A stretch of 37,655 bases of DNA, taken from IMG/VR virus record IMGVR_UViG_2939167301_000003; one strand, written 5' to 3'. Made by a program: the position numbers and the translations under genes. The notes beneath the pieces were generated by a model that saw nothing but the letters and a program-made list of their open reading frames with translations, made no database searches and was not told the DNA's origin. Below are positions 3,238 through 29,160 of the stretch, piece by piece (position 1 is the first letter of the stretch; the number at the start of each line of letters is the position of its first letter). This DNA is from a virus (taxonomy: Duplodnaviria > Heunggongvirae > Uroviricota > Caudoviricetes).

Positions 3238-3509
3238 GTATTCGTATTGAAATTGGCGAACGTTATGTCGTTACCAGTGACAGCTTTCAGTTTATTCTCC
3301 ACGAGAAAAAGAGAGCGGAAAGCGGTAAAAACGCCGGTCAGGAATGGCTGGCGGTGGTTGGTTATTACCCGAAATTAGGCCAGCTCGTTTCCGGCCTGAT
3401 GCATCACGATATTCTGACCGGAAGCGCAAAATCTTTTGCTGATTTAAACGCGCAGGTTGAGCAACTCAGCAAGCGTTGTTCAGAGGCTTTTGGCTCATAT
3501 GGCCGTTAA
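3234..3509 (+). CDS. P2 orf83-like hypothetical protein
   Basis: ORF in early operon, overlapping the start of A. Confidence 0.6.
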   Translation: MSIRIEIGERYVVTSDSFQFILHEKKRAESGKNAGQEWLAVVGYYPKLGQLVSGLMHHDILTGSAKSFADLNAQVEQLSKRCSEAFGSYGR

Positions 3510-5778
3510 AGCCTCCGGGCGTTTTGTCCCTCCGTCAGCATTTACCGCAGGCACCGGTAAGGCGTTTACCGGTGCTTATGCATGGAACGCGCCACGCGAG
3601 GCTGTCGGGCGCGAAAGACCTCTTACACGTGACGAGATGCGTCAGGTGCAAGGTGTTTTATCCACGATTAACCGCCTGCCTTACTTTTTGCGCTCGCTGT
3701 TTACTTCACGCTATGACTACATCCGGCGCAATAAAAGCCCGGTGCACGGGTTTTATTTCCTCACATCTACTTTTCAGCGTCGTTTATGGCCGCGCATTGA
3801 GCGTGTGAATCAGCGCCATGAAATGAACACCGACGCGTCGTTGCTGTTTCTGGCAGAGCGTGACCACTATGCGCGCCTGCCGGGAATGAATGACAAGGAG
3901 CTGAAAAAGTTTGCCGCCCGTATCTCATCGCAGCTTTTCATGATGTATGAGGAACTCTGCGATGCATGGGTTGATGCGCATGGTGAAAAAGAATCGCTGT
4001 TTACGGATGAGGCGCAGGCTCACCTGTATGGTCATGTTGCTGGCGCTGCACGTGCTTTCAATATTTCCCCGCTCTACTGGAAAAAATACCGTAAAGGACA
4101 GATGACCACGAGGCAGGCATATTCTGCCATTGCCCGCCTGTTTAACGATGAGTGGTGGACTCATCAGCTTAAAGGCCAGCGTATGCGCTGGCATGAGGCG
4201 TTACTGATAGCTGTCGGGGAGGTCAATAAAGACCGTTCTCCTTATGCCAGTAAACACGCCATTCGTGATGTGCGTGCGCGCCGCCAGGCAAATCTGGAAT
4301 TTCTTAAATCGTGTGACCTTGAAAACAGGGAAACCGGCGAGCGCATCGACCTTATCAGTAAGGTGATGGGCAGTATTTCTAATCCTGAAATTCGCCGGAT
4401 GGAGCTGATGAACACCATTGCCGGTATTGAGCGTTACGCCGCCGCAGAGGGTGATGTGGGGATGTTTATCACGCTGACCGCGCCGTCAAAGTATCACCCG
4501 ACACGTCAGGTCGGAAAAGGCGAAAGTAAAACCGTTCAGCTTAATCACGGCTGGAACGATGAGGCATTTAATCCAAAGGATGCGCAGCGTTATCTCTGCC
4601 GTATCTGGAGCCTGATGCGCACGGCATTCAAGGATAATGATTTACAGGTCTACGGTTTGCGAGTCGTCGAGCCACACCACGACGGAACGCCGCACTGGCA
4701 TATGATGCTTTTTTGTCATCCACGCCAGCGTAACCAGATTATCGAAATCATGCGTCGCTATGCGCTCAAAGAGGATGGCGACGAAAGAGGAGCCGCGCGA
4801 AACCGTTTTCAGGCAAAACACCTTAACCGGGGCGGTGCTGCGGGATATATCGCGAAATACATTTCAAAAAACATCGACGGCTATGCACTGGATGGTCAGC
4901 TCGATAACGACACCGGCAGGCCGCTGAAAGACACTGCAGCGGCTGTTACCGCATGGGCGTCAACGTGGCGCATTCCGCAATTTAAAACGGTTGGCCTGCC
5001 GACAATGGGGGCTTACCGTGAACTACGCAAATTGCCTCGCGGCGTCAGCATTGCTGATGAGTTTGACGAGCGCGTCGAGGCTGCACGCGCCGCCGCAGAC
5101 AGTGGTGATTTTGCGCTGTATATCAGCGCGCAGGGCGGGGCAAATGTCCCGCGCGATTGTCAGACTGTCAGGGTCGCCCGTAGTCTGTCGGATGACGTTA
5201 ACGAGTACGAGGAAGAAGTCGAGAGAGTGGTCGGCATTTACGCGCCGCATCTCGGCGCGCGTCATATTCATATCACCAGAACGACGGACTGGCGCATTGT
5301 GCCGAAAGTTCCGGTCGTTGAGCCTTTGACTTTAAAAAGCGGCATCGCCGCGCCTCGGAGTCCTGTCAATAACTGTGGAAAGCTCACCGGTGGTGATACT
5401 TCGTTACCGGCTCCCACACCTTCTGAGCACGCCGCAGCAGTGCTAAATCTGGTTGATGACGGTGTTATCGAATGGAATGACCCGGAGGTCGTGAGGGCGC
5501 TCAGGGGTGCATTAAAACACGGTCGGAGAACGCCAGGTCGTCAGCAAAGAAACGGAAGCCCGTTAAAACCACATGAAATTGCACCATCGGCCAGACTGAC
5601 CCGGTCTGAACGATTGCAAATCACCCGTATCCGTGTTGACCTTGCTCAAAACGGTATCAGGCCGCAGCGATGGGAGCTTGAGGCGTTAGTACGCGGTGCG
5701 ATCGTCAATTACAATGAAAAGCAATTTTCATATCCTAGTGTAGATGAGTGGAGTGGGTTTTCTGGTTATTCAGAGTAA
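3499..5778 (+). CDS. A: Replication initiation protein A (rolling-circle HUH endonuclease)
   Basis: About 760 aa (P2 gpA is 761 aa). Starts MAVKASGRFVPPSAF as P2 gpA. HUH motif PHWHMMLF present, and catalytic Tyr candidates in GYIAKYISKN. Confidence 0.92.
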   Translation: MAVKASGRFVPPSAFTAGTGKAFTGAYAWNAPREAVGRERPLTRDEMRQVQGVLSTINRLPYFLRSLFTSRYDYIRRNKSPVHGFYFLTSTFQRRLWPRIERVNQRHEMNTDASLLFLAERDHYARLPGMNDKELKKFAARISSQLFMMYEELCDAWVDAHGEKESLFTDEAQAHLYGHVAGAARAFNISPLYWKKYRKGQMTTRQAYSAIARLFNDEWWTHQLKGQRMRWHEALLIAVGEVNKDRSPYASKHAIRDVRARRQANLEFLKSCDLENRETGERIDLISKVMGSISNPEIRRMELMNTIAGIERYAAAEGDVGMFITLTAPSKYHPTRQVGKGESKTVQLNHGWNDEAFNPKDAQRYLCRIWSLMRTAFKDNDLQVYGLRVVEPHHDGTPHWHMMLFCHPRQRNQIIEIMRRYALKEDGDERGAARNRFQAKHLNRGGAAGYIAKYISKNIDGYALDGQLDNDTGRPLKDTAAAVTAWASTWRIPQFKTVGLPTMGAYRELRKLPRGVSIADEFDERVEAARAAADSGDFALYISAQGGANVPRDCQTVRVARSLSDDVNEYEEEVERVVGIYAPHLGARHIHITRTTDWRIVPKVPVVEPLTLKSGIAAPRSPVNNCGKLTGGDTSLPAPTPSEHAAAVLNLVDDGVIEWNDPEVVRALRGALKHGRRTPGRQQRNGSPLKPHEIAPSARLTRSERLQITRIRVDLAQNGIRPQRWELEALVRGAIVNYNEKQFSYPSVDEWSGFSGYSE

Positions 5779-5985
5779 TAAACATAATGTTTTAGATTGG
5801 TTGCATAATGGTAAGGTTGCTGTTTATCTGTATATGTTAATATGATTACGCTACGTACAAACAATCGACATTTCTTTTTTTCTATATATTAATATTGATG
5901 ATTTTACTGGTGGTACAATAAGTCTATGTTGAAATTCGAGAATTGTATTATTAACAATAAAAACTGGTTCTTTTTATTATACAAG

Positions 5986-6012
5986 GACCACCTCCTTAGG
6001 AGGTGGTCTTTT
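5986..6012 (+). terminator. Rho-independent terminator after A
   Basis: Perfect 10-bp stem GACCACCTCC/GGAGGTGGTC with TTA loop, followed by TTTT. Confidence 0.7.
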
Positions 6013-6017
6013 ACTGT

Positions 6018-8501
6018 TTAACGAGGGTTTCGCGTATAGGTTTCAACTATGTCTGATGCACGTAATTTACATGTGATCAATTGTTCTCTTATAAATATCT
6101 CATCGTGTCGTTTATCACTTGTACAAATGGCCGTGATAAAACTGAGGATAGATGCTTTAAAACGTTCAAGATCATTTATGGTCATTATTCGAGACCCTTC
6201 GTTTAGTGTTGCGGCATATTCAGGCATATTAGAGTGATGTATCATTATAGGTGTGGCGGTAGCAGTTTGATCATACATGTTTCTGAACCATGCACCCGAC
6301 CCATTTAACTGATTGCAGTCATGCTTACTTATTCTTTCTGCGGTTGCTCCATTTTTGCATTCAATTACTAGATAATTGTTTTCTCCCATTGCCCATAAAT
6401 TGTCAGGTCCTTTACCTGTATCATTTTCTGGCCGTTGGCTACGAAAACCGACCAAATATGCAACTTTTTCGATAGCATCTTCGAAGGGATTCGATGTGCC
6501 CTCGGAGAAAATAAGGTTTTCTATTATTGAATTAGTATGCACAACGACTTGATTGGCCGATTCAAAATTACTTCTGAGATAGGAGCTACATTCCCTGGCC
6601 TGTTCAAGTGCCGCACCATTAAGTCTATTATATGTTACGCCGATTAGTGGTTTTAATACCCGATAGTTATCGTTTGATGCAGACTGAAGCAATATCTGAG
6701 CTTCAGATTTGTCATATAAGTTTACATATTCCGCAGCATGTTCTTTTAGATAACCCTTATAAACTTTGTCAGCTGTACTACTATCATTTTTTAGAGTTAA
6801 AGCGGCTTGTTGAAACATATTTCGTGATGCTAAGTCATATGCCAATCTTTTATTTATAGTATGCTGGTCAATCTGCTTATTTTCCAATGTTAAGCCAGTC
6901 AATATACCTTTGCTTTTTGAGACCCAGTCAGAATTGCGTAACAGACAATAATCAAGAGCACCTTTGATTGAATCAATAGTTGTATCCGGCAGTATCGATA
7001 CCAATTGCTGTGAAAGTTGAATTTGTGCTTTCGTTGCTGGAGAAAACCTTTCTAAGGAGGAGCCAAGGAAAACAGCGCCATTTAATGCTTTGCCAAGTAA
7101 GATCACTCCGCAGAAGTCGTCGCTTGATCTCACTCCTCGCCCCATTCCTTGTTCAATTTTCTGGATAATTTCATCTTTGGTTTTTTCGCTTCCAAGCAAT
7201 AAGCTTTGTGAGACTTTATCTATTAGTCTACGAACGTCAGGAAGTCCATCTATTACTAATAGACGACATGCGGTATTTGGTAAATCAATACCATCATATC
7301 TATTAACTAGGACTACTAAGCCAACATGTTGTGTCCTTAATTCTTGTACACCTTGATAAATTGTATTTTTATCTAATATTCTGTCTGCAACATCTTGCCA
7401 AAATCTAGTTCTGTAATCGGATGGTACAATTACAACAACATTATGTTTGGAGGATATCTCCTTGCACATAGCTTTGATATCTACATCAGAAAGACTAGGG
7501 TTTATAACCTGAGGCATTAGTATCATTCTATCACCAATATCACCAATTGTTTTTGGTGTTATCGGATTAGAGAGTGATTCATCCGTTATTCCGAAGTGGC
7601 TCGCTAGAATGGATTCATCGACAAGAGTAGCTGTCATGAATATTTTTCTTCTTGCGTTTGATAGGCTTGGGATCATTTGGATTGGTATGCAATGAGGTGA
7701 TATCTCTATTTTGGAAGCACTTACAACGCATTTCGATAATATTAGATTGTCTTTTATTAATGGCCATTTGAAACTCAAGTCATCATGGTCTTTATTTTCT
7801 AACAAGATTGTCATTATATCATTTATGCTTTCTTGCCATTTCCAAAATGGAACTCTCACATAAGCATTTCTATCGCCGGATTTTATCTCTAGTGTTTTTG
7901 CACCAGCTTGTGTCATTAGTGAATTTTCAAAAATTCTGAATAATTTATCATAGGCAGGGTTGTTTTTTTGAATGCTAATGGAGAATTGTTCTTCAATTGA
8001 AGAAAGGCAAGCGTGAGCATCGTCAATTATTATAGAACCTATTGGTATTCTTTGTCCATCATCTCCAACGCCAAATGCAGAACGTCCATTAACCACTTTG
8101 AATATATTTGTAACTAAAATTTCTTTACCTGCAATAAATTTGGGGGACCTCTCATCTTGAGTTACAGGTATACCAAGTTGATTAGCCTCCAAAACCACTT
8201 GCTCAACTAGATAGTTGTCAGGAACAACATATACAGCGGGACCTTCTCCTTCATTTATACAGCTTTTAAGAATGATTAACCCAACTGAAGTTTTACCGCT
8301 TCCGGTATTCATTTTTATTACATTGGTTGGGCTTCTCCTTGCTTCATACCATTTTTCCCAGACCTCTGATTGCACATCTCGAGGGTATTGAAATTTGGTG
8401 TCTTTGCTCGGTAGAGCTGTAAATATATCTCGCGGTGGAATCGCTGTGTCGCTATTTACACTGGGCGAAAGCTTGGTTAAATCAAGGAAAAAACCAGACA
8501 T
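6018..8501 (-). CDS. SF2 (DEAH-like) helicase fused to a C-terminal PD-(D/E)xK-type nuclease; candidate single-gene anti-phage defence protein in the P2 tin/old cargo position
   Basis: 827-aa ORF with a good SD (AAGAGGA) 6 bp upstream. Helicase motifs seen: Walker A NTGSGKTS, motif II IIIDDAHA, motif III MTATL, motif VI QGMGRGVR. C-terminus has E...GPD...VIECK. Strongly AT-rich compared with flanking phage genes. Confidence 0.7.
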   Translation of the reverse strand: MSGFFLDLTKLSPSVNSDTAIPPRDIFTALPSKDTKFQYPRDVQSEVWEKWYEARRSPTNVIKMNTGSGKTSVGLIILKSCINEGEGPAVYVVPDNYLVEQVVLEANQLGIPVTQDERSPKFIAGKEILVTNIFKVVNGRSAFGVGDDGQRIPIGSIIIDDAHACLSSIEEQFSISIQKNNPAYDKLFRIFENSLMTQAGAKTLEIKSGDRNAYVRVPFWKWQESINDIMTILLENKDHDDLSFKWPLIKDNLILSKCVVSASKIEISPHCIPIQMIPSLSNARRKIFMTATLVDESILASHFGITDESLSNPITPKTIGDIGDRMILMPQVINPSLSDVDIKAMCKEISSKHNVVVIVPSDYRTRFWQDVADRILDKNTIYQGVQELRTQHVGLVVLVNRYDGIDLPNTACRLLVIDGLPDVRRLIDKVSQSLLLGSEKTKDEIIQKIEQGMGRGVRSSDDFCGVILLGKALNGAVFLGSSLERFSPATKAQIQLSQQLVSILPDTTIDSIKGALDYCLLRNSDWVSKSKGILTGLTLENKQIDQHTINKRLAYDLASRNMFQQAALTLKNDSSTADKVYKGYLKEHAAEYVNLYDKSEAQILLQSASNDNYRVLKPLIGVTYNRLNGAALEQARECSSYLRSNFESANQVVVHTNSIIENLIFSEGTSNPFEDAIEKVAYLVGFRSQRPENDTGKGPDNLWAMGENNYLVIECKNGATAERISKHDCNQLNGSGAWFRNMYDQTATATPIMIHHSNMPEYAATLNEGSRIMTINDLERFKASILSFITAICTSDKRHDEIFIREQLITCKLRASDIVETYTRNPR

Positions 8502-8715
8502 TTTTTATCCTCTTACAGGTACTGCGTATTTTCATGAAAGGAGATCACTCAATAACTTCCATCGAGATCGGGTAATAACATTTGAACAGATCGCTGAATA
8601 ACATCGATGGAGATCACTTTTGACTCATTTTGTTATTCAGTGATCTCCATCAATGTTATTGGAACTTCACAGGTGTGTTGATCTGTATCTTTTGCCATTC
8701 CGGTAAAGGATACCT

Positions 8716-10257
8716 ATGCCAACAGTTCCAATTTCTATGAGAAAACTTAAAGAAATTCTTAGGCTTAAATACGGTGTTGGACTCAGCCATCGACAAATTG
8801 GTCGTAGTCTTGCAATCTCCCCTTCCGTTGTATCCAGATATGCTAATCGGGCGGCTCAACTTGGCATAAAGCAGTGGCCCTTACCTACAGGATGGGATGA
8901 TACAAAACTAAAACATGCGTTCCTTCAGACCCAGGTTAAGATGAAGAAGCACTCTCTGCCTGACTGGGCTACAGTACACCGGGAACTGCGTAATAAATGC
9001 GTGACGCTGCAGCTACTCTGGGAAGAATACTGTGAGCGTAATCCAGGCGGTTTTTACAGCTATAACCATTACTGCCGGATGTACCGTGAATGGCTCAAAA
9101 CCACTTCACCATCAATGCGTCAGGTACATAAAGCTGGCGAAAAACTTTTCGTTGATTACTGTGGACCTACCGTTGGCGTTACCGACCCTGAGACCGGAGA
9201 AATAAGAACTGCTCAGGTCATCGTAGCTGTTCTCGGGGCATCAAGTTACACATGGGCAGAGGCCACCTGGTCTCAGCAGCTTGAAGACTGGGTGATGAGT
9301 CATGTTCGCTGCTTCCAGTGGTTGGGTGGCGTTCCTGAACTTGTTGTTCCGGACAATCTGAAAAGCGCCACATCCAGGGCATGTAAGTATGATCCTGACG
9401 TTAACCCTACCTACCAGCAGATGCTTGAGCATTATAATGTCGCAGTTTTGCCTGCGCGGCCACGTAAACCGAAAGATAAAGCCAAAGCTGAAGTTGGCGT
9501 TCAGGTTGTTGAACGCTGGATCATGGCCCGAATCAGGCATGAGATCTTCTACAGCCTTGCATCGCTTAATCAGCGCATTCGGGAGTTGCTGGAAAGACTG
9601 AATAACAAAATAATGCAGAAGTTGGGTTATTCACGTGCAGAACTCTTCATCCAGCTTGATAAACCCGCACTGAAGCCTCTTCCTGAAGCCAGTTACAGTT
9701 ACACCCTGGTGAAGAAAGTCAGAGTCCATGCCGATTACCACGTGGAAATCGACAAACATTACTACTCGGTTCCATGTTCGCTGTTAGGCCAGCAACTGGA
9801 AGCATGGATCTCCGGAGAACTGGTAAGACTCTTCAATCAGGGGCAGGAGGTTGCTGTGCACCCGCGCAAGCGTACTTATGGCTACAGTACCCGCAACGAG
9901 CACATGCCTGAAGCTCATCGACAGCATGCCACCTGGACGCCAGAGCGTCTTCTGGAATGGGCGGGGCACATAGGCAGTGAAACTCATAGTTATGTGCTTC
10001 ATATACTGAACTCTCGTCCACATCCGGAACAAAGCTATCGCTTCTGCCTTGGACTCCTGAACCTTCATAAAAAATACAGTAAAGCCAGACTTAATGCAGC
10101 ATGTGCAAGAGCTCTGAAAACAAAGGTATGGCGTCTGTCAGGTATTAAATCGATCCTGGAAAAAGGTCTGGATAAACAACCTGTTCAGGATCCAAAACCA
10201 GATCTGTTATCCACGATGGAACACGAAAACGTACGCGGCAGTGAGTATTACCACTGA
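8716..10257 (+). CDS. istA: IS21-family transposase IstA
   Basis: 513 aa with N-terminal HTH (LSHRQIGRSLAISPSVVSRY) and a DDE integrase-like core; followed by istB. Confidence 0.85.
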   Translation: MPTVPISMRKLKEILRLKYGVGLSHRQIGRSLAISPSVVSRYANRAAQLGIKQWPLPTGWDDTKLKHAFLQTQVKMKKHSLPDWATVHRELRNKCVTLQLLWEEYCERNPGGFYSYNHYCRMYREWLKTTSPSMRQVHKAGEKLFVDYCGPTVGVTDPETGEIRTAQVIVAVLGASSYTWAEATWSQQLEDWVMSHVRCFQWLGGVPELVVPDNLKSATSRACKYDPDVNPTYQQMLEHYNVAVLPARPRKPKDKAKAEVGVQVVERWIMARIRHEIFYSLASLNQRIRELLERLNNKIMQKLGYSRAELFIQLDKPALKPLPEASYSYTLVKKVRVHADYHVEIDKHYYSVPCSLLGQQLEAWISGELVRLFNQGQEVAVHPRKRTYGYSTRNEHMPEAHRQHATWTPERLLEWAGHIGSETHSYVLHILNSRPHPEQSYRFCLGLLNLHKKYSKARLNAACARALKTKVWRLSGIKSILEKGLDKQPVQDPKPDLLSTMEHENVRGSEYYH

Positions 10258-10268
10258 TACGGGATCCA

Positions 10269-11018
10269 ATGATGAATCATCTTTACGAACAACTGACCGC
10301 ACTTAAACTCACCGGCTTCCGTGATGCGCTTAAAAAGCAACTTGCTCAGCCGGGCACATACCAGGAGCTGGGCTTCGAAGAACGCCTGTCATTACTGACA
10401 GCAGAAGAACTAACCTGCCGTGAAAACAGGAAGGCAGAGCGTCTGATCAAACATGCACGGTTCAGACTTAATGCTGAGTTATCAAAGCTGGATTATCGTA
10501 ACAATAGAGGGCTGGACAGGGCCCTCATCCGTTCACTCAGTCAGGGAAACTGGTTAACCCTGAAACAAAATATTTTACTGACCGGGGCCACCGGCAGCGG
10601 TAAAACGTTCCTGGCATGTGCACTTGGTCATAATGCCTGCCGACAGGGATACAAGGTCTACTATTATCGCCTTAAAGCGCTGATGGAACAGTGCTATCAG
10701 GGGCATGCTGATGGAAGATACAGCAAACTTTTGACCAGGCTGAATAATAGCGATCTGCTGCTTCTGGATGACTGGGGGCTGGAACCTCTCTCATCAGAAC
10801 AGCGTAGCGACCTGCTGGAAATAGTGGATCTGATGTACCAACGAGGCTCAATCATCGTAGTGAGCCAGTTGCCGGTGGAAAACTGGTACAAAATGATCGG
10901 AGACTCCACACATGCGGATGCCATCCTAGATCGACTGGTTCATGGCAGTATCAAGATCGAACTTAAAGGAGAATCAATGCGGAAAATACAATCTCCGTTG
11001 ACCGAAGGAGATCAGTGA
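10269..11018 (+). CDS. istB: IS21-family ATP-binding helper IstB
   Basis: 249 aa with Walker A GATGSGKTF and Walker B LLLLDDWG, typical of IstB. Confidence 0.88.
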   Translation: MMNHLYEQLTALKLTGFRDALKKQLAQPGTYQELGFEERLSLLTAEELTCRENRKAERLIKHARFRLNAELSKLDYRNNRGLDRALIRSLSQGNWLTLKQNILLTGATGSGKTFLACALGHNACRQGYKVYYYRLKALMEQCYQGHADGRYSKLLTRLNNSDLLLLDDWGLEPLSSEQRSDLLEIVDLMYQRGSIIVVSQLPVENWYKMIGDSTHADAILDRLVHGSIKIELKGESMRKIQSPLTEGDQ

Positions 11019-11270
11019 AGGTAATTTAAAAACGGTTCTGTGAAAGTGACACGAACCGATCTCCATCGATGTTACTCACCGATCTCCTTCACGGTAATAC
11101 GCAGGTACATTAGTTTAATTGTTAACGCAGAATTATCATTACCATAACTTGCATTAAGTTGCATTACATTGCATTCATAAACGTTAGCTAGGGGCGAAGT
11201 CTGAGGTTTGATGGGCTATGGTGTCCCCTTTAATACGAGGTTGCATCAAAACCGCCCCATGAAGCGGGCG

Positions 11271-11289
11271 GGCGAGGCGGGGAAAGCAC
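11271..11289. other. Phage cos site (19-nt cohesive end sequence)
   Basis: GGCGAGGCGGGGAAAGCAC matches the P2 cohesive-end sequence as recalled. Located just downstream of Q, as in P2. Confidence 0.7.
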
Positions 11290-11431
11290 TGCGCGCTGGC
11301 GGTGGTGCTGATTTTATTTTTTCAGCGTCTCAGCGCGTCGTGACGGCGCTTAGTCTGTCCGTTGAGGCGTTGGTTTGCCTGCGGACTGTTTTGTGCGGTG
11401 GTGAGCGTGTGAGGGCGTGATGACGGGATGT

Positions 11432-11454
11432 AAAAAAGCCGCCCGCAGGCGGCG
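11432..11454 (-). terminator. Rho-independent terminator after Q
   Basis: Minus-strand hairpin GCCGCCTGCGGGCGGC followed by a T6 run, directly after the Q stop. Confidence 0.65.
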
Positions 11455-11458
11455 ATGT

Positions 11459-12493
11459 TCAGCCGTTGTCAGTGTCCAGTGAGTAGTTTTTAAAGCGGAT
11501 GACCTCCTGACCGAGCCAGCCGTTTATCTCGCGGATCCTGTCCTGTAGCGGGATAAGCTCATTGCGGACAAAGACCTTTGCCACTTTCTCAATATCTCCC
11601 AGTGACCCGACGTTCTCCGGCTTGCCGCCCATCAACTGAAAGGGGATGCGGTGCGCGTCCAGCAGGTCAGCGGCGCTGGCTTTTTTGATATTAAAAAAAT
11701 CGTCCTTCGTTGCCACTTCACTGAGCGGGATAATTTTAATGCCGTCAGCTTTCCCCTGCGGGGCATAGAGAAACAGATTTTTAAAGTTGTTGCGGCCTTT
11801 CGACTTAACCATGTTTTCGCGAAGCATTTCGATATCGTTGCGGTCCTGCACGGCATCGGTGACGTACATGATATATCCGGCATGAGCGCCGTTTTCGTAA
11901 TACTTGCGGCGGAACAGCGTGGCCGACTCATTCAGCCAGGCAGAGTTAAGGGCGCTCAGATATTCTGGCAGGCCGTACAGCTCCTGATTGATATCCGGCT
12001 CCAGCAGGTGAAACACGGAGCCGGGCGTGAAAGGTGTCGGCTCGTTGAAGGACGGCACCCACCAGTAAACATCCTCCTCCACGCCACGACGGGTATATTT
12101 TGCCGGTGAGGTTTCCAGTCTGATGACCTTACCGGTGGTGCTGTAACGCTTTTCCAGAAACGCATTACCGAACACCAGAAAATCCAGCACAAAGCGGCTG
12201 AAATCCTGCTGGGAAAGCCACGGATGCGGGATAAATGTTGAGGCCAGAATATTACGTTTGACGTAAATCGGTGAGCTGTGATGCACGGCAGCACGCAGGC
12301 TTTTTGCCAGACCGGTAAAGCTGACCGGTGGTTCATACCATCTGCCGTTACTGATGCACTCGACGTAATCCAGAATGTCACGGCGGTCGAGTACCGGTAC
12401 CGGCTCGCCAAAGGTGAATGCTTCCATTTTCGGGGCGCTGGCGGTCATTTTTTTGGCCGCAGGTTGCGGTGTTTTCCCTTTTTTCTTGCTCAT
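11459..12493 (-). CDS. Q: Capsid portal protein Q
   Basis: 344 aa, the exact size of P2 gpQ, in the P2 position at the left end of the late region. Confidence 0.9.
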   Translation of the reverse strand: MSKKKGKTPQPAAKKMTASAPKMEAFTFGEPVPVLDRRDILDYVECISNGRWYEPPVSFTGLAKSLRAAVHHSSPIYVKRNILASTFIPHPWLSQQDFSRFVLDFLVFGNAFLEKRYSTTGKVIRLETSPAKYTRRGVEEDVYWWVPSFNEPTPFTPGSVFHLLEPDINQELYGLPEYLSALNSAWLNESATLFRRKYYENGAHAGYIMYVTDAVQDRNDIEMLRENMVKSKGRNNFKNLFLYAPQGKADGIKIIPLSEVATKDDFFNIKKASAADLLDAHRIPFQLMGGKPENVGSLGDIEKVAKVFVRNELIPLQDRIREINGWLGQEVIRFKNYSLDTDNG

Positions 12494-14265
12494 CAGTAAA
12501 ACTCCAGAATGGTGGATGTCAGCGGGGTGCTGATACCGGCGGTGAGTGGCTCATTTAACAGGGCGTGCATGGTCGCCCAGGCGAGGTCGGCGTGGCTGGC
12601 TTCCTCGCTGCGGCTGGCCTCATACGTGGCGCTGCGTCCGCTGCTGGTCATGGTCTTGCGGATAGCCATAAACGAGCTGGTGATGTCGGTGGCGCTGACG
12701 TCATATTCCAGACAGCCACGGCGGATGACGTCTTTTGCCTTGAGCACCATTGCGGTTTTCATTTCCGGTGTGTAGCGGATATCGCGCGCGGCGGGATAGA
12801 ACGAGCGCACGAGCTGGAACACGCCGACACCGAGGCCGGTGGCATCAATACCGATGTATTCGACGTTGTATTTTTCGGTGAGTTTGCGGATGGATTCCGC
12901 CTGAGTGGCAAAGTCCATGCCTTTCCACTGGTGACGCTCAAGTATTCTGAATTTGCCACCGGCCACCACCGGCGGTGCCAGTACCACGCATCCGGCGCTG
13001 TCGCCACGGTGTGACGGGTCGTAACCAATCCATACCGGGCGGGAGCCGAACGGATTCGCGGCAAACGGCGCATAGTCTTCCCATTCTTCCAGCGTGTCGA
13101 CCATGCAGCGTTGCAGCTCCTCGAACGGGAACACCGACGCCTTGTCGTCAACAAATTCACACATGAACAGGTTTTTAAAATCGTCGGCGCTGTTTTCACG
13201 TTTGAGCTGCTCAATGTCGAACAGCGTGCAGCCGCCTTTCAGCGCGTCCTCAATGGTGACAATCTGCCGCCACTGGCCGTCTGCACAGAGAAGCCCACCG
13301 GCAAGGGCGTTATGACTGACGTCGATTTCCACGCGTTCGGCGGCGCTGGCGCGTCCCCGGTTGAACAGTTCACCCGACCAGAACGGGTAGGCGTCGTGCG
13401 CCAGCGTGGACGGGGTGGAGAAATAGGTCGAACGCAGGTGACTCTGTGAGGCCATACCTGATGCCACCTTACGCAGTACCTGAAAATTCGGGATCCAGAA
13501 AATCTCGTCGACGTACAGGTCGCCGTTATGGCTCTGCGCGGTGTTGGAGTTGGTGCCGAGAAAAATCAGTTTTGCGCCGTTATTGCCCAGGACAATCGGG
13601 TCACCGGTCAGGTCAACGTCAACCAGCCGGGCAAAGGCGATGATGTATTCGCGGAACACATACGCCTGCGTTTTACTGGCCGACAGAAAAATCTGGTTAT
13701 GACCGGTTTTCAGGGCGCGCAGCAGCGCCTCGCGGGAAAAATAAAACGTCGCGCCAATCTGGCGGGATTTCAGGATATCGCGGATGCGGTGCTCAAGCCC
13801 GGCGCGATACCAGTGCAACTGATATTCGAAAGACTGCTCAAAGAAAATCTGCTCCAGCTTTTCGATGGCCTCGTCACTGAAAAAATTCTTTTTCGGTTTG
13901 CGCCGCCCGCCTTTGTTGCGGTTAGCGACGTTCGGATTAAGGTCTGCCTCGTTGCCGGTCTGACTGTAACGGTTGACCCGTGCCAGTCGTTCAATCTGGC
14001 GTCCCAGCAGGTCAATTTCCTTGAAGTCACCGCCGGTTTTCTGCGGTTTGATGATGAGCTGGGTCAGCCGCGCTTCCAGACTCATTTCGACACGGCTGAT
14101 GGGGGCAACGCTGTCCCAGCCGTCGCGCTGTTTCCAGCTCTGCACCGTCGGGCGTTTCATCTGCAACATGGCGGCAATCTGCGGCACGGAAAATCCCTGC
14201 CAGTACAGCAGCGCCGCCTGACGACGCGGGTCGTGTAAAAGAGTGGTGTCTGTGGTGATGGTCAT
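12493..14265 (-). CDS. P: Terminase large (ATPase) subunit P
   Basis: 590 aa if started at MTITTDTTLL (P2 gpP is 590 aa). Divergent from O as in P2. Confidence 0.9.
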   Translation of the reverse strand: MTITTDTTLLHDPRRQAALLYWQGFSVPQIAAMLQMKRPTVQSWKQRDGWDSVAPISRVEMSLEARLTQLIIKPQKTGGDFKEIDLLGRQIERLARVNRYSQTGNEADLNPNVANRNKGGRRKPKKNFFSDEAIEKLEQIFFEQSFEYQLHWYRAGLEHRIRDILKSRQIGATFYFSREALLRALKTGHNQIFLSASKTQAYVFREYIIAFARLVDVDLTGDPIVLGNNGAKLIFLGTNSNTAQSHNGDLYVDEIFWIPNFQVLRKVASGMASQSHLRSTYFSTPSTLAHDAYPFWSGELFNRGRASAAERVEIDVSHNALAGGLLCADGQWRQIVTIEDALKGGCTLFDIEQLKRENSADDFKNLFMCEFVDDKASVFPFEELQRCMVDTLEEWEDYAPFAANPFGSRPVWIGYDPSHRGDSAGCVVLAPPVVAGGKFRILERHQWKGMDFATQAESIRKLTEKYNVEYIGIDATGLGVGVFQLVRSFYPAARDIRYTPEMKTAMVLKAKDVIRRGCLEYDVSATDITSSFMAIRKTMTSSGRSATYEASRSEEASHADLAWATMHALLNEPLTAGISTPLTSTILEFY

Positions 14266-14438
14266 GAATACCTCGCCGTGATGAATACACGGCAAGGCTA
14301 CTGAGTCGCGCCCCGCGATTCGCTAAGGTGCTGTTGTGTCAGTGATAAGCCATCCGGGACTGATGGCGGAGGATGCGCATCGTCGGGAAACTGATGCCGA
14401 CATGTGACTCCTCTAATCACTATTCAGGACTCCTGACA
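14266..14438. promoter_or_regulatory. Divergent late promoter region (P-Q leftward, O-N-M-L rightward), presumably Ogr-activated
   Basis: Intergenic between divergent P and O. In P2 this holds the Ogr-dependent late promoters; individual elements were not resolved here. Confidence 0.45.
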
Positions 14439-25989: not shown

Positions 25990-26158
25990 TGCAGAGATAA
26001 CGGGCAAGTGGCATCATCTCCGGTTTTTATTCAGGGGGATGCTCATGCTTATTGGCTATGTACGCGTGTCAACAAATGTAAGCGTCGTCTCAGCACCGTC
26101 TGGCAGATCCTGAAATTCCTGAGAGAATAGTGGACACCAAATATGGTGGACGCAATCC

Positions 26159-26563
26159 ATGAAATCATTAACCGCAGTGCGTAAAAAAAGCCCTAATTAT
26201 CCCGTTGAGTTCAAAATCAAAATGGTTGAACTCTCGCATCGACCAGAGATCTCCGTAGCGCAACTCGCTCGTGAGCATGGGATCAACGATAATTTGCTGT
26301 TCAAGTGGCGCCAGTACTGGCGCGAAGGAAAACTACGTCCTCCTTCAACAACAGAAAACAACGTGCCTGAGCTGCTCCCGATAACACTTGATGCCGAAGA
26401 TGTTGTCCCTACAACCTCCCCCCGGTCACAACCTGTAGCTGCTGCGACACCTGAATCACTCAATATCAGCTGTGAAGTGACGTTCCGGCACGGATCACTC
26501 CGTCTGAATGGTGCCATCAGCGAAAATATCCTGAACCTGCTGATACGGGAGCTCAAACGTTGA
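26159..26563 (+). CDS. IS66-family Orf1 (TnpA, HTH protein)
   Basis: 134 aa, first of three ORFs; start of the next ORF overlaps its stop. Confidence 0.8.
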   Translation: MKSLTAVRKKSPNYPVEFKIKMVELSHRPEISVAQLAREHGINDNLLFKWRQYWREGKLRPPSTTENNVPELLPITLDAEDVVPTTSPRSQPVAAATPESLNISCEVTFRHGSLRLNGAISENILNLLIRELKR

Positions 26564-26907
26564 TCCCATTACCATCAGGGACAAAGATCTGGCTGGTCGC
26601 TGGCATCACCGATATGAGAAACGGCTTCAACGGCCTGGCGGCAAAGGTGCAGACGACGCTGAAAGACGATCCGATGTCAGGTCACGTTTTTATCTTCCGT
26701 GGGCGTAATGGCAGTCAGGTAAAGCTCCTCTGGTCTACCGGCGATGGACTGTGTCTGCTGACCAAACGGCTGGAGCGCGGCCGCTTCGCCTGGCCGTCAG
26801 CCCGGGATGGCAAAGTGTTCCTCACACCGGCACAGCTGGCGATGCTGCTGGAAGGTATCGACTGGCGGCAGCCTAAAAGACTGCTTACGTCCCTGACTAT
26901 GTTGTAA
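26560..26907 (+). CDS. IS66-family Orf2 (TnpB)
   Basis: 115 aa; the MIPLPSG...IWLVAGITDMR N-terminus is typical of IS66 Orf2 as recalled. Confidence 0.85.
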   Translation: MIPLPSGTKIWLVAGITDMRNGFNGLAAKVQTTLKDDPMSGHVFIFRGRNGSQVKLLWSTGDGLCLLTKRLERGRFAWPSARDGKVFLTPAQLAMLLEGIDWRQPKRLLTSLTML

Positions 26908-26955
26908 GCCTCTTTATCCTGGTCGACGCTGAATGAGCCTGGTAATATACCCGGT

Positions 26956-28491
26956 ATGAGCAGCTCACTTCCTGACGATATCAATGCACTGAAACGTCTC
27001 CTTGCCGAACAGGAGGCGCTGAACCGTGCCCTGCAGGAAAAGCTGAACGAGCGTGAACGCGAAATAGACCATCTGCAGGCACAGCTGGATAAGCTGCGCC
27101 GGATGAACTTCGGCAGCCGCTCGGAAAAAGTCTCCCGTCGTATCGCACAGATGGAAGCTGACCTGAAGGCACTTCAGAAAGAAAGTGATACCCTTACCGG
27201 TCGGGTTGACGACCCGGCCGTGCAGCGCCCGCTGCGTCAAACCCGCACCCGCAAACCGTTCCCCGAATCACTCCCCCGCGATGAAAAACGGCTGCTGCCG
27301 GCAGCGTCATGCTGCCCGGAATGTGGAGGCTCGCTGAGCTATCTGGGTGAGGATGCCGCCGAACAGCTGGAGCTGATGCGCAGCGCCTTCCGGGTTATCC
27401 GGACTGTACGTGAAAAGCATGCCTGTACTCAGTGCGATGCCATCGTGCAGGCCCCCGCGCCTTCACGGCCCATCGAGCGGGGTATCGCAGGACCGGGGCT
27501 GCTGGCCCGCGTGCTGATCTCAAAGTATGCAGAGCACACCCCGCTGTACCGCCAGTCTGAAATGTACGGCCGCCAGGGCGTGGAGCTGAGTCGTTCACTG
27601 CTGTCGGGCTGGGTGGATGCATGCTGCCGGCTACTGTCACCGCTGGAAGAAGCGCTTCAGGACTATGTGCTGACTGACGGTAAGCTCCATGCTGATGACA
27701 CGCCTGTCCCGGTGCTGTTGCCAGGCAATAAGAAAACGAAGACCGGGCGGTTATGGACCTACGTTCGTGACGACCGTAACGCCGGGTCAACGCTGGCGCC
27801 GGCGGTGTGGTTCGCTTACAGCCCGGACAGAAAAGGCATCCATCCGCAGACCCATCTTGCGGGGTTCAGTGGTGTACTGCAGGCGGATGCATACGCCGGG
27901 TTCAACGAGCTGTACCGGGATGGCCGGATAACGGAAGCCGCCTGTTGGGCTCACGCCCGCCGTAAAATCCACGATGTGCACGTTCGCACCCCGTCAGCCC
28001 TGACGGAGGAAGCGCTGAAACGGATCGGCGAACTGTACGCCATCGAGGCAGAGATAAGGGGAATGACGGCGGAGCAGCGCCTTGCCGAACGTCAGTTGAA
28101 AACGAAACCGCTGCTGAAATCCCTGGAAAGCTGGCTGCGTGAAAAGATGAAAACCCTGTCGCGACACTCAGAACTGGCGAAAGCGTTCGCATACGCCCTG
28201 AACCAGTGGCCGGCGCTGACGTACTATGCAGATGATGGCTGGGCTGAGGCGGACAATAACATCGCTGAAAATGCGTTGCGGATGGTCAGTCTGGGCCGCA
28301 AAAACTACCTGTTCTTCGGTTCGGATCATGGAGGAGAGCGGGGAGCGCTGCTGTACAGCCTGATCGGGACGTGCAAACTGAACGGAGTGGAGCCAGAAAG
28401 CTACCTCCGCTATGTCCTTGACGTCATAGCCGACTGGCCGATAAACCGGGTCGGCGAACTGCTCCCCCTGGCGCGTAGCACTGCCGACTGA
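26956..28491 (+). CDS. IS66-family transposase (Orf3 / TnpC)
   Basis: 511 aa with an N-terminal leucine-zipper-like coiled coil, a CxxC zinc finger (CPECGG...CTQC) and a DDE-type core. Confidence 0.88.
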
Positions 28492-29160
28492 ATAACACAT
28501 CCCCGTCAATACGGTTCTTGCTGCACGCTTACCAACAAATGACCAGAACACGGAATTGCAGCGTAACGCGCTGGAGTGCGCAGGATGTGAGCTGATTTTT
28601 GAGGATAAAATCAGCGGCACGAAGTCCGACAGGCCGGGGCTGAAAAAACTGCTCAGAACATTATCGGAAGGTGACACTCTGGTAGTCTGGAAGCTGGACC
28701 GGCTGGGGCGTAGTATGCGGCATCTGGTCATTCTGGTTGAGGAGCTGCGCGAACGCGGCATTAATTTTCGCAGCCTGACGGATGCCATTGATACCAGCAC
28801 GCCGATGGGGCGTTTTTTCTTTCATGTGATGGGTGCCCTGGCTGAAATGGAGCGAGAACTCATTGTCGAGCGGACACGCGCCGGACTGGAGGCGGCCAGA
28901 GCCAAAGGTCGTATTGGTGGCAGACGTCCGAAACTCACCGCGAGTGAGTGGGAGCAGGCCGGGCGGTTGCTGGCTGCAGGGGAATCACGTCAACGCGTGG
29001 CACTGATTTTTGATATTGGCCTGTCCACGCTCTATAAAAAATTCCCCGCCTCAGTGACAAAAAATAAATTGTGTCATCCCTTAGCCAACCGGGACAAATA
29101 GCCTGACATCTCCGGCACAACTAAAAATATCACTCACCCATTAACCACGGAGTTAAACGG

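Follow-up and report, generated by a model that had tools for sequence, protein, structure and literature searches.

ISEc12 separates an hna helicase-nuclease gene from its upstream region in a P2-like prophage of Escherichia coli strain 219

The window, meaning the whole 37,655-nucleotide stretch of DNA that was analysed (IMG/VR record IMGVR_UViG_2939167301_000003), contains a P2-like prophage of Escherichia coli strain 219 in which an insertion sequence (IS) lies between a helicase-nuclease gene, hna, and the phage cos site. The hna gene sits in the gpA-cos-gpQ defence hotspot of P2 (PMC9122126, PMC13586616), where conserved gpA on one side and cos/gpQ on the other enclose variable cargo; the position by cos, flanked by gpA and gpQ, is that of the P2 old/tin hotspot (Rousset et al. 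2022, PMC9122126; PMC13586616), whereas the cargo here is hna, with an IS inside the hotspot as well. The features of the locus are as follows.

3457–5778, plus strand: P2 replication gene A (gpA), intact, the left border of the hotspot (Pfam Phage_GPA, 414 bits; annotation)
6018–8501, minus strand: hna, an intact ORF of 827 aa encoding an Hna-family SF2 helicase / PD-(D/E)xK nuclease (ORF call)
8502–8522, minus strand: retained native leader of 21 nt, including AAGAGGA at 8508–8514 and the left GGTAC; joined directly to 11109 and beyond where the site is empty
8518–8522: left target duplication GGTAC (flanking repeat, empty site)
8523–11103, plus strand: ISEc12 (IS21 family), complete, 2581 bp, ends TG...CA (100% identity to annotated copies; empty-site reconstruction)
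8523–8556, plus strand: IRL region, facing the hna start (end alignment; repeat families D1, D6 and I1–I7)
8716–10257, plus strand: istA transposase, 513 aa (Pfam rve and Mu-transpos_C_2; NCBIfam transpos_IS21, 310 bits, cut-off 160)
10269–11018, plus strand: istB helper ATPase, 249 aa (Pfam IstB_IS21, 227 bits; NCBIfam IS21_help_AAA, 270 bits, cut-off 200)
11071–11103, plus strand: IRR (end alignment)
11104–11108: right target duplication GGTAC (flanking repeat, empty site)
11109–11242, minus strand: displaced hna-specific upstream region, 37% GC, outside the conserved P2 core
11136–11164, minus strand: candidate native hna promoter (block conserved upstream of homologues)
11149–11174, minus strand: three copies of ATGCAA at intervals of exactly 10 bp, overlapping the -35-like element and kept in the P2-context homologues L007 and L008
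11271–11289, plus strand: P2-type cos, GGCGAGGCGGGGAAAGCAC, a string that we take to be P2 cos (exact string match; 167 bp from the IS end)
11438–11453, minus strand: terminator-like hairpin and T-run after Q (terminator scan)
11459–12493, minus strand: P2 portal gene Q, the right border of the hotspot (Pfam Phage_portal; annotation)

As with P2 old, cargo of the hotspot is read leftward, starting on the side of cos, and hna and istA are divergently transcribed. The hna start codon is the ATG at 8501..8499 on the minus strand, preceded by a 6-nt spacer (TAAAAA) and the Shine-Dalgarno sequence AAGAGGA (8514..8508); the ORF call, the sequence and the identical RefSeq start all agree with the initial annotation, which had the gene beginning at 8501 with a good Shine-Dalgarno 6 bp upstream. 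That annotation also spoke of a candidate defence gene, and the defence part holds but the label undersells the gene, which is by sequence a member of the Hna helicase-nuclease family and a homologue of an experimentally characterised system. PADLOC scores the product as PDC-S28 (1054.6 bits), and residues 40–476 match Pfam ResIII, DEAD and Helicase_C_2, corresponding to an N-terminal SF2 helicase (HEL1/HEL2). A phmmer comparison with the solved S. meliloti Hna (10uj_A/9yhn/9ykj) gave E = 7.3e-121, aligning query residues 60–792 with chain residues 62–806. Like S. meliloti Hna (Sather et al. 2023; 9YHN/9YKJ/10UJ, PMC13381803) it is a single protein in the ~830–845 aa range with full-length homology, and the two share aligned SF2 motifs GSGKT and DDAH and a C-terminal PD-(D/E)xK nuclease with P-D...E-x-K residues. 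Within the nuclease, GPDNLW...IECK aligns residue for residue with the S. meliloti protein, and P699, D700, E714 and K716, which align to its catalytic P712, D713, E727 and K729 (PMC13381803), are invariant across 15 enterobacterial homologues. In S. meliloti the gene resides on the pSymA megaplasmid, whereas the enterobacterial clade is found here in a P2-like prophage hotspot. PADLOC v2 labels the enterobacterial product only as candidate PDC-S28, and a literature search for PDC-S28 gave nothing beyond one inventory paper; its functional identity comes from the match to the PDB sequences, which equates PDC-S28 with the characterised Hna family. Hna protects by abortive infection and is activated by phage SSB, a role that this enterobacterial allele may share by homology. 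When the phage collection was searched for the allele with tblastn, one distant match only (30% identity) was obtained and no sequenced phage record carrying it.

The IS had been placed in the IS21 family, and the istA/istB domains, the TG...CA ends, the 5-bp duplication and the 100% identity to ISEc12 all confirm this. Consecutive istA (HTH and DDE/rve) and istB (AAA+) genes are the hallmark of the family, and 8523–11103 is 100% identical over positions 1–2581 to many plasmid copies annotated as 'IS21-like element ISEc12 family'. Alignment of both ends by hand gives imperfect TG...CA inverted repeats (TGCGTATT...) with 26 of 34 positions matching and one gap, and internal GGAGATC-type repeats run inward from IRL to ~8660. 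ISEc12 is reported to make 5-bp target duplications (PMC10711316), and an independent copy in strain M217 terminates at the identical ...ACGCA base. The left inverted repeat was originally reported at about 8517, some 15 bp upstream of the hna start codon; the duplication and the empty site put the true left end at 8523 and the distance from ATG to IS at 21 nt. The earlier reading apparently counted the target duplication within the IS, and the boundary shifts by just 6 bp from that placement. Disruption of cos by ISEc12 is judged unlikely from the sequence, the IS being 167 bp from cos and 135–140 bp outside the conserved core.

A comparison with relatives lacking the IS, as the initial annotation had proposed, reveals the native join of 8522 to 11109. 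The joined segments 8123–8522 and 11109–11508 are matched at 100% over 800 bp in 25/25 E. coli genomes among the matches listed; altogether 68 complete E. coli genomes match the empty-site join at a coverage of at least 80%, and GGTAC is single-copy in the empty-site genomes. The occupied junction is present in one of 5426 complete E. coli genomes, that of strain 219 (NZ_CP020514.1), and thus in one of the 69 genomes that carry hna. An assembly artefact is ruled out by the perfect 5-bp duplication, the full-length IS and the complete-genome source. With 100% identity both between the flanks and empty sites and between this IS and other copies, and with the junction in a single carrier, the insertion is, as far as these comparisons tell, recent and private to strain 219. 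The hna ORF is intact in 69/69 carriers (first 600 bp at 99% nucleotide identity or more), and the occupied and empty-site strains share the protein accession WP_000012516.1; the undamaged ORF fits a recent insertion but also continued use of the gene. ISEc12 has inserted into this small prophage on at least two independent occasions: gpA carries it in 42 genomes and the hna leader in strain 219.

The sequence upstream of the 21-nt leader has been displaced 2586 bp, beyond ISEc12, in keeping with the roughly 2.6 kb given earlier. The remaining 21 nt are too short for a promoter, so that none could lie wholly within 8502–8516; the native control region is now remote from hna. Homology to other P2-like phages starts only at ~11243 and 11109–11242 therefore belongs to the hna cargo; this region co-diverges with hna in homologues of 98, 90 and 82% identity. 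The AT-rich stretch at 11113–11200, suggested by the initial annotation to be a remnant of the native promoter, falls in this cargo-specific region and includes a promoter-like block with a -35-like ATGCAA (11164..11159), a 17-bp spacer and an extended -10-like TGGTAATGA (11144..11136, TGnTAATGA pattern), both of which support the suggestion. The predicted transcription start near 11129 implies a 5′ UTR of ~42 nt. The block recurs at a constant distance upstream of the start codon in eight of 12 non-redundant hna contexts, these being contigs that encode hna homologues (shuffled expectation 0.12, maximum 2); among enterobacteria it is seen in P2-like and P4-like contexts, in a conjugative-element context and in further prophages or islands. 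A single-protein search of genome contigs found no hna homologues, an alignment-based locus search found only distant ones in other phyla (56% identity or less) that are useless for promoter footprinting, and an Rfam scan of 5700–11600 found no known RNA family. The scores of the block on a sigma-70 weight matrix are low (0.5–3.3), and we only infer a promoter here, with 11113–11200 as the best candidate for its location. As the block lies upstream, at 11164–11136, the insertion point of ISEc12 is most likely inside the hna 5′ UTR.

ISEc12 has thus transposed into the short intergenic region between hna and P2 cos, duplicating GGTAC and probably entering at about +21 of a leader of ~42 nt. The ORF, ATG, ribosome binding site and 21 nt of leader are preserved, and all the sequence further upstream, the conserved promoter-like block included, is now 2586 bp off, beyond the element. 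It is the left end (IRL, istA side) that adjoins hna, whereas the outward -35 elements and outward promoters documented in the IS21 family are at the right, 3′ (IRR) end (PMC9330008, PMC3281130), and direct promoter drive of hna would for this reason be lost. The hairpin after Q suggests that hna is also isolated from the late operon. RNA polymerase starting at the native promoter could reach hna only through the IS, making 2.6 kb of antisense RNA that is not translated. RNA of this kind is typically subject to Rho-dependent termination in E. coli, which makes it most likely that Hna expression in strain 219 is strongly reduced or lost. In S. meliloti a twofold change in hna transcription markedly alters phage resistance (PMC12445080), and with protection so dose-sensitive the Hna defence of strain 219 would probably be weakened or lost. 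Overexpression of wild-type Hna is more toxic than that of nuclease-deficient mutants (PMC13381803), and loss of expression therefore need not be costly. Taken whole, from promoter displacement through strongly reduced Hna expression to weakened or lost defence, we consider this explanation reasonably probable.

Alternatively, the native promoter could fire leftward across the antisense IS and yield a transcript with a 2.6-kb-longer leader, leaving Hna reduced yet protective. The promoter-like block is intact and oriented toward hna, the Shine-Dalgarno and ATG are intact and the ORF is unchanged, and the lack of a strong intrinsic terminator on the minus strand from 11103 to 8523 would permit some read-through. 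However, a 2.6-kb stretch of antisense RNA that is not translated is what Rho classically acts on in E. coli, and the path contains six weak hairpin-plus-T sites and modest C-over-G rut-like regions. Convergent transcription is also possible, both from istAB and from IRR, which contains an outward-facing -35-like TTCACG (11088–11093) that is directed away from hna and forms, with TAGTTT at 11111–11116, a hybrid promoter-like site across IRR (TTCACG-17-TAGTTT) reading toward cos. Even a several-fold drop in expression would matter for a dose-sensitive system, and we consider protective read-through unlikely.

Less probable again is that the IS supplies a promoter, either a cryptic antisense one in its left end or a hybrid at the IRL junction, possibly with altered regulation of hna. 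Activation of adjacent genes is known in the IS21 family (PMC3281130, PMC9330008), and the initial annotation had raised an outward promoter at the IS end. That proposal is not borne out, as the wrong end (IRL) faces hna, the IRR/3′ end for which such elements are documented faces cos, and a consensus sigma-70 scan found no promoter-like site reaching 9/12 consensus matches on either strand at 8350–8800. Over the IS and its flanks (8480–11260) the consensus scan found no promoter-like site on the minus strand, that of hna, the sole match being on the plus strand at 10640–10667; no consensus-level outward -35 with a correctly spaced -10 is thus seen in the IS end adjacent to hna, though weak cryptic promoters may lie there. 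The weight matrix does give minus-strand candidates in the IS left end, TCAACA-17-TAACAT (8681..8653, score 7.4) and TTGATG-15-CAAAAT (8653..8627), and a junction hybrid, ATGAAA-17-GAGGAT (8535..8507), with a -10 that overlaps the Shine-Dalgarno, so that the mRNA would be leaderless or lack a Shine-Dalgarno. The cryptic IS-internal sites outscore the conserved native block, and sequence scoring therefore cannot rank the alternatives; the matrix is crude and was treated as uninformative for this purpose.

A further reading sees in the insertion, instead of neutral decay, an 'off' (or re-wired) state of a costly abortive-infection nuclease that was selected and might be reversed; it is speculative and we hold it to be very improbable. 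If this reading were true, an IS between promoter and ribosome binding site would leave an intact hna open to re-activation by excision, adjacent deletion or IS-junction promoters. Adjacent deletion is known for IS21-family elements. We give the least credence to a neutral insertion without functional consequence, with hna already silent or irrelevant in a decaying prophage, for example as silenced AT-rich foreign DNA: GC content is 37% in hna and its upstream region against 52% in the window and 53% in gpA and Q, the prophage lineage already has ISEc22 in its invertase gene (59 genomes) and many relatives have ISEc12 in gpA (42 genomes), but the ORF is preserved in every carrier, the promoter-like block is conserved across mobile contexts, and hotspot cargo genes were generally active from native promoters in tests (PMC9122126).

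Displacement of the promoter by ISEc12, the explanation that we prefer, can be likened to the disruption of tssM in E. coli ST131 clade C (PMC10711316), a lineage marker-type event that inactivates a competition or defence function and involves the same element (100%), a 5-bp duplication and the same istA-istB order. In contrast to tssM, the hna coding sequence is unsplit, an intact ORF and ribosome binding site having been parted from their control region, and whereas the tssM insertion is fixed in its clade that in the hna leader is private to one strain. Insertions into cas genes (PMC10359306) and activation through IS hybrid promoters (PMC9330008) likewise show an IS altering the expression state of a defence gene; the geometry in strain 219 argues for promoter displacement rather than the ORF disruption of the former, and the IS end that faces hna argues against the latter. 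The insertion itself is ordinary biology, an already-known type of event that will not surprise a specialist.

PADLOC and DefenseFinder inventories would score strain 219 as having an intact system though hna is cut off from its control region, and an intact ORF that lacks an adjacent control region means that presence of the ORF does not equate to active immunity. Strain 219 provides a natural promoter-less hna allele that can be compared with the 68 empty-site genomes for the level of Hna needed in protection. [quoted passage not shown]

The prophage of E. coli strain 219 contains an insertion sequence immediately upstream of hna, a gene encoding an Hna-family helicase-nuclease. The features at this site are as follows:

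6018-8501, minus strand: hna, an 827-residue ORF with an ATG start and the Shine-Dalgarno sequence AAGAGGA (8514..8508)
8518-8522 and 11104-11108: target duplication GGTAC, a 5 bp direct repeat flanking ISEc12
8523-11103, plus strand: ISEc12, a complete IS21-family element of 2581 bp, assigned by identity to annotated copies
8716-10257, plus strand: istA (rve/Mu-transposase_C; NCBIfam transpos_IS21)
10269-11018, plus strand: istB (IstB_IS21)

Many plasmid copies annotated as ISEc12 match the full 2581 bp at 100% identity. The ends are imperfect inverted repeats (TG...CA, TGCGTATT...) in which 26 of 34 positions agree by hand alignment, and GGAGATC-type repeats are also present internally, inward of the terminal repeats. 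A 5 bp duplication has also been reported for the ISEc12 insertion in tssM of ST131 (PMC10711316). Strain M217 has an independent copy of ISEc12, next to an unrelated flank, that stops at the identical ...ACGCA base.

We rebuilt the empty site in silico by joining 8123-8522 to 11109-11508, i.e. without ISEc12 and one GGTAC. This 800 bp sequence is matched by 68 genomes (coverage at least 80%), and among the matches listed it is 100% identical over its full 800 bp in 25 of 25 E. coli genomes. The occupied left junction is found in just one of 5426 genomes, that of strain 219 itself (NZ_CP020514.1, a blood isolate from Boston). The hna 5′ end is present in exactly 69 genomes, corresponding to 68 empty sites and one occupied site. 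The ISEc12 insertion is recent and, among these genomes, private to strain 219, and it displaces the hna promoter. The rebuilt site and the M217 terminus together show that the initial annotation described the locus correctly save for a 6 bp offset: hna does start at 8501 on the minus strand with its Shine-Dalgarno sequence 6 nt from the ATG, an IS21-family element does lie beside it, and the displacement put at about 2.6 kb is 2586 bp by the empty-site join, whereas the left end of the element is at 8523 rather than about 8517 and is 21 nt, not some 15 bp, from the ATG. The comparison with relatives lacking the IS, which had been proposed as a check, is supplied by the 68 empty-site genomes, and these give the native upstream sequence.

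The hna coding sequence itself has not decayed, as strain 219 shares protein accession WP_000012516.1 with the empty-site strain M217. Pfam identifies helicase domains only (aa 40-476), PADLOC v2 matches the product full-length to candidate family PDC-S28 (1054.6 bits), and a PDB sequence search returns one strong relative, 10uj_A (also 9yhn and 9ykj; E=7.3e-121, residues 60-792). Structures 9yhn and 9ykj are cited in a cryo-EM paper on Hna of S. meliloti, a helicase-nuclease abortive-infection system in which the catalytic residues P712/D713/E727 and K729 were mutated (PMC13381803). These align with P699/D700/E714/K716 of the hna product, which are invariant across 15 enterobacterial homologues. 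The PDB match and the aligned invariant residues identify the product, at the level of sequence, as a genuine member of the Hna family whose active site is intact. In S. meliloti, T7-like and T4-like phages are Hna-sensitive. There is a naming gap between resources, in that PADLOC-DB v2 lists only as candidate PDC-S28 a protein clearly homologous (E=7e-121) to Hna, which has been characterised and has solved structures.

The prophage is P2-like, with integrase, gpA, portal Q and terminase P followed by late genes:

1-1011: integrase
3457-5778: gpA
11271-11289: the string GGCGAGGCGGGGAAAGCAC, located exactly
11453..11438, minus strand: terminator-like hairpin and then a T-run, after Q
11459-12493: portal Q
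12493-14295: terminase P

We take the string at 11271-11289 to be the P2 cos sequence, and the positions of gpA, cos and Q thus place hna within the gpA-cos-gpQ interval. This is a well-described defence hotspot, occupied in P2 itself by old/tin (PMC9122126, PMC13586616) and here by hna. DNA homology with other P2-like phages resumes only at ~11243, and 11109-11242 is therefore cargo, as is hna. Both have a GC content of 37% (52% in the window; 53% in gpA and Q), as is common in horizontally acquired DNA, and this AT-rich gene and upstream region are a possible H-NS target. The hairpin after Q separates hna from the late operon, such that hna needs its own promoter. A second, GC-rich hairpin followed by TTTT (CCGCCCGCTTCATGGGGCGG TTTTGATG) abuts cos on the hna side (11252-11271, minus strand); it may belong to the cos structure or else act as a terminator that protects hna from transcripts crossing cos.

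Close homologues of hna are present on contigs at 98, 90, 82, 81, 80, 79, 77, 69 and 60% protein identity, both in P2-like hotspots and in the following settings:

L012/L013: beside a P4-type primase
L014/L015: in a lambdoid prophage, between replication and Q/RusA genes
L010, L019: beside integrases
L018: beside a CI repressor
L009: between TraU and TraC genes

Contigs L009-L020 carry the same single-gene cassette at 60-81% identity, and by these contexts hna is a highly mobile single-gene cargo cassette. Alignment of the upstream regions reveals a two-part block kept at fixed spacing, consisting of xTG(C/G)xx, a 17 bp spacer ending in TGn, and TA(A/T)T(G/T/A)A. Two promoter candidates are present in this prophage:

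11164..11136, minus strand: conserved block, ATGCAA (11164..11159), 17 bp, then TGGTAATGA (11144..11136), a candidate by conservation
11139..11112: ATGATA-16-TAAACT, an alternative weight-matrix candidate lying wholly right of the insertion point

The composite pattern precedes the ATG by 75-89 nt in eight of 12 non-redundant contexts, several of whose sequences share ancestry, compared with a mean of 0.12 and a maximum of two contexts in 2000 shuffles. The block with TAATGA lies at about -55 to -89 from the ATG in L007, L008, L009, L012, L017, L018 and L019, and accompanies enterobacterial hna in P2-like, P4-like and conjugative-element contexts and next to integrases or a CI repressor. Its hexamer-like positions are conserved whereas its spacer varies freely, as would be expected for a -35/extended -10 promoter. 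An A at position -7 gives the block a poor score on a sigma-70 matrix, and given this score and the shared ancestry we infer it to be the best candidate promoter or operator, probably an extended -10 promoter belonging to the cassette itself. The AT-rich stretch at 11113-11200, initially suggested as a promoter remnant, thus does contain the conserved block, whose promoter role is putative. If the block is the promoter, transcription would start near 11129 with a leader of ~42 nt, and ISEc12 would fall midway along the 5′ UTR. The 21 nt left beside hna cannot hold a promoter, and with both candidates to the right of the insertion the gene is cut off from its control region in either case. The -35-like element is overlapped by three ATGCAA repeats at an exact 10 bp interval, one helical turn (11149-11174, minus strand); these repeats are kept in the 90% and 82% P2-context homologues, are absent from the other contexts, and may represent a regulator-binding array or overlapping -35 elements.

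The initial annotation had envisaged either silencing of hna or its transcription from the IS end; we favour the former, and Hna expression is likely to be strongly reduced. A reduction would matter because Hna protects in a steeply dose-dependent manner: in S. meliloti, resistance differs markedly when transcription shifts twofold or when the gene is present in a second copy (PMC12445080). Overexpressed wild-type Hna is more toxic than nuclease-deficient mutants (PMC13381803), and reduced expression therefore need not be costly.

The displaced promoter still points at hna, and read-through along 2.6 kb antisense to ISEc12 might keep the gene expressed; this path has no strong intrinsic terminator, only six weak hairpin-plus-T sites, and its C-over-G regions are modest. 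However, Rho efficiently terminates long untranslated antisense RNA in E. coli, so little read-through would be expected and we consider this outcome unlikely.

Transcription of hna from a promoter within ISEc12 appears quite improbable. In the IS21 family an outward-facing -35 is located in IRR, at the 3′ end, where it gives rise to the junction promoter in tandem or circular intermediates and to hybrid promoters such as ISKpn7/blaKPC and ISBf1/cepA; the experimentally mapped outward promoters of Paracoccus IS21-family elements were likewise sought in 3′ terminal fragments (PMC9330008, PMC3281130). ISEc12 fits this pattern, with recognisable junction-promoter halves in IRR (TTCACG, 11088-11093) and IRL (inward-facing TATTTT, 8527-8532), and abutting its ends with a 3 bp spacer would give TTCACG-17-TATTTT. 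Here IRR and the right flank form TTCACG-17-TAGTTT (11088-11116, plus strand), which is directed at cos rather than hna and converges on the displaced promoter. The end next to hna is IRL, on the istA side, with hna reading outward from it, and a consensus scan of the minus strand found no promoter-like site, either at the left end or elsewhere in the element. A crude weight matrix does return weak antisense candidates at the left end: TCAACA-17-TAACAT (8681..8653), TTGATG-15-CAAAAT, and a hybrid site at the junction, overlapping the Shine-Dalgarno sequence; these might have some promoter activity. That hna was already silent before the insertion is highly improbable.

A second insertion sequence is present elsewhere in the prophage:

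26078-28532: ISEc22 (IS66 family), with flanks at 26046-26077 and from 28533 onward
26159-26563: ISEc22 tnpA
26560-26907: ISEc22 tnpB
26956-28491: ISEc22 tnpC

ISEc22 is flanked by an 8 bp target duplication (CAACAAAT) and interrupts a tail-fibre invertase gene of the Cin/Gin type, following about codon 12 (MLIGYVRVSTN/DQNT...). This insertion is common to 59 E. coli genomes and is thus older than the ISEc12 event at hna. In 42 of the 69 hna carriers a different ISEc12 copy lies inside gpA, which is annotated as lacking its N-terminus; positions 1-1670 of the M217 contig (L002, NZ_AP019189.1) correspond to gpA at 3457-5778, and gpA of strain 219 is intact. This prophage has thus received at least two independent ISEc12 insertions, and together with ISEc22 these make it IS-ridden. 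It is probably a defective element in which hna is nevertheless intact.

All of the components are already known, namely ISEc12, the Hna family, the P2 hotspot and the silencing of immune genes by IS insertion, with cas genes among those switched off in this way (PMC10359306). The specific insertion is undescribed, and is an ordinary single-strain polymorphism. A defence ORF that annotation tools report as intact may be cut off from its regulation, and the occupied site of strain 219 is a natural allele for testing Hna dosage.
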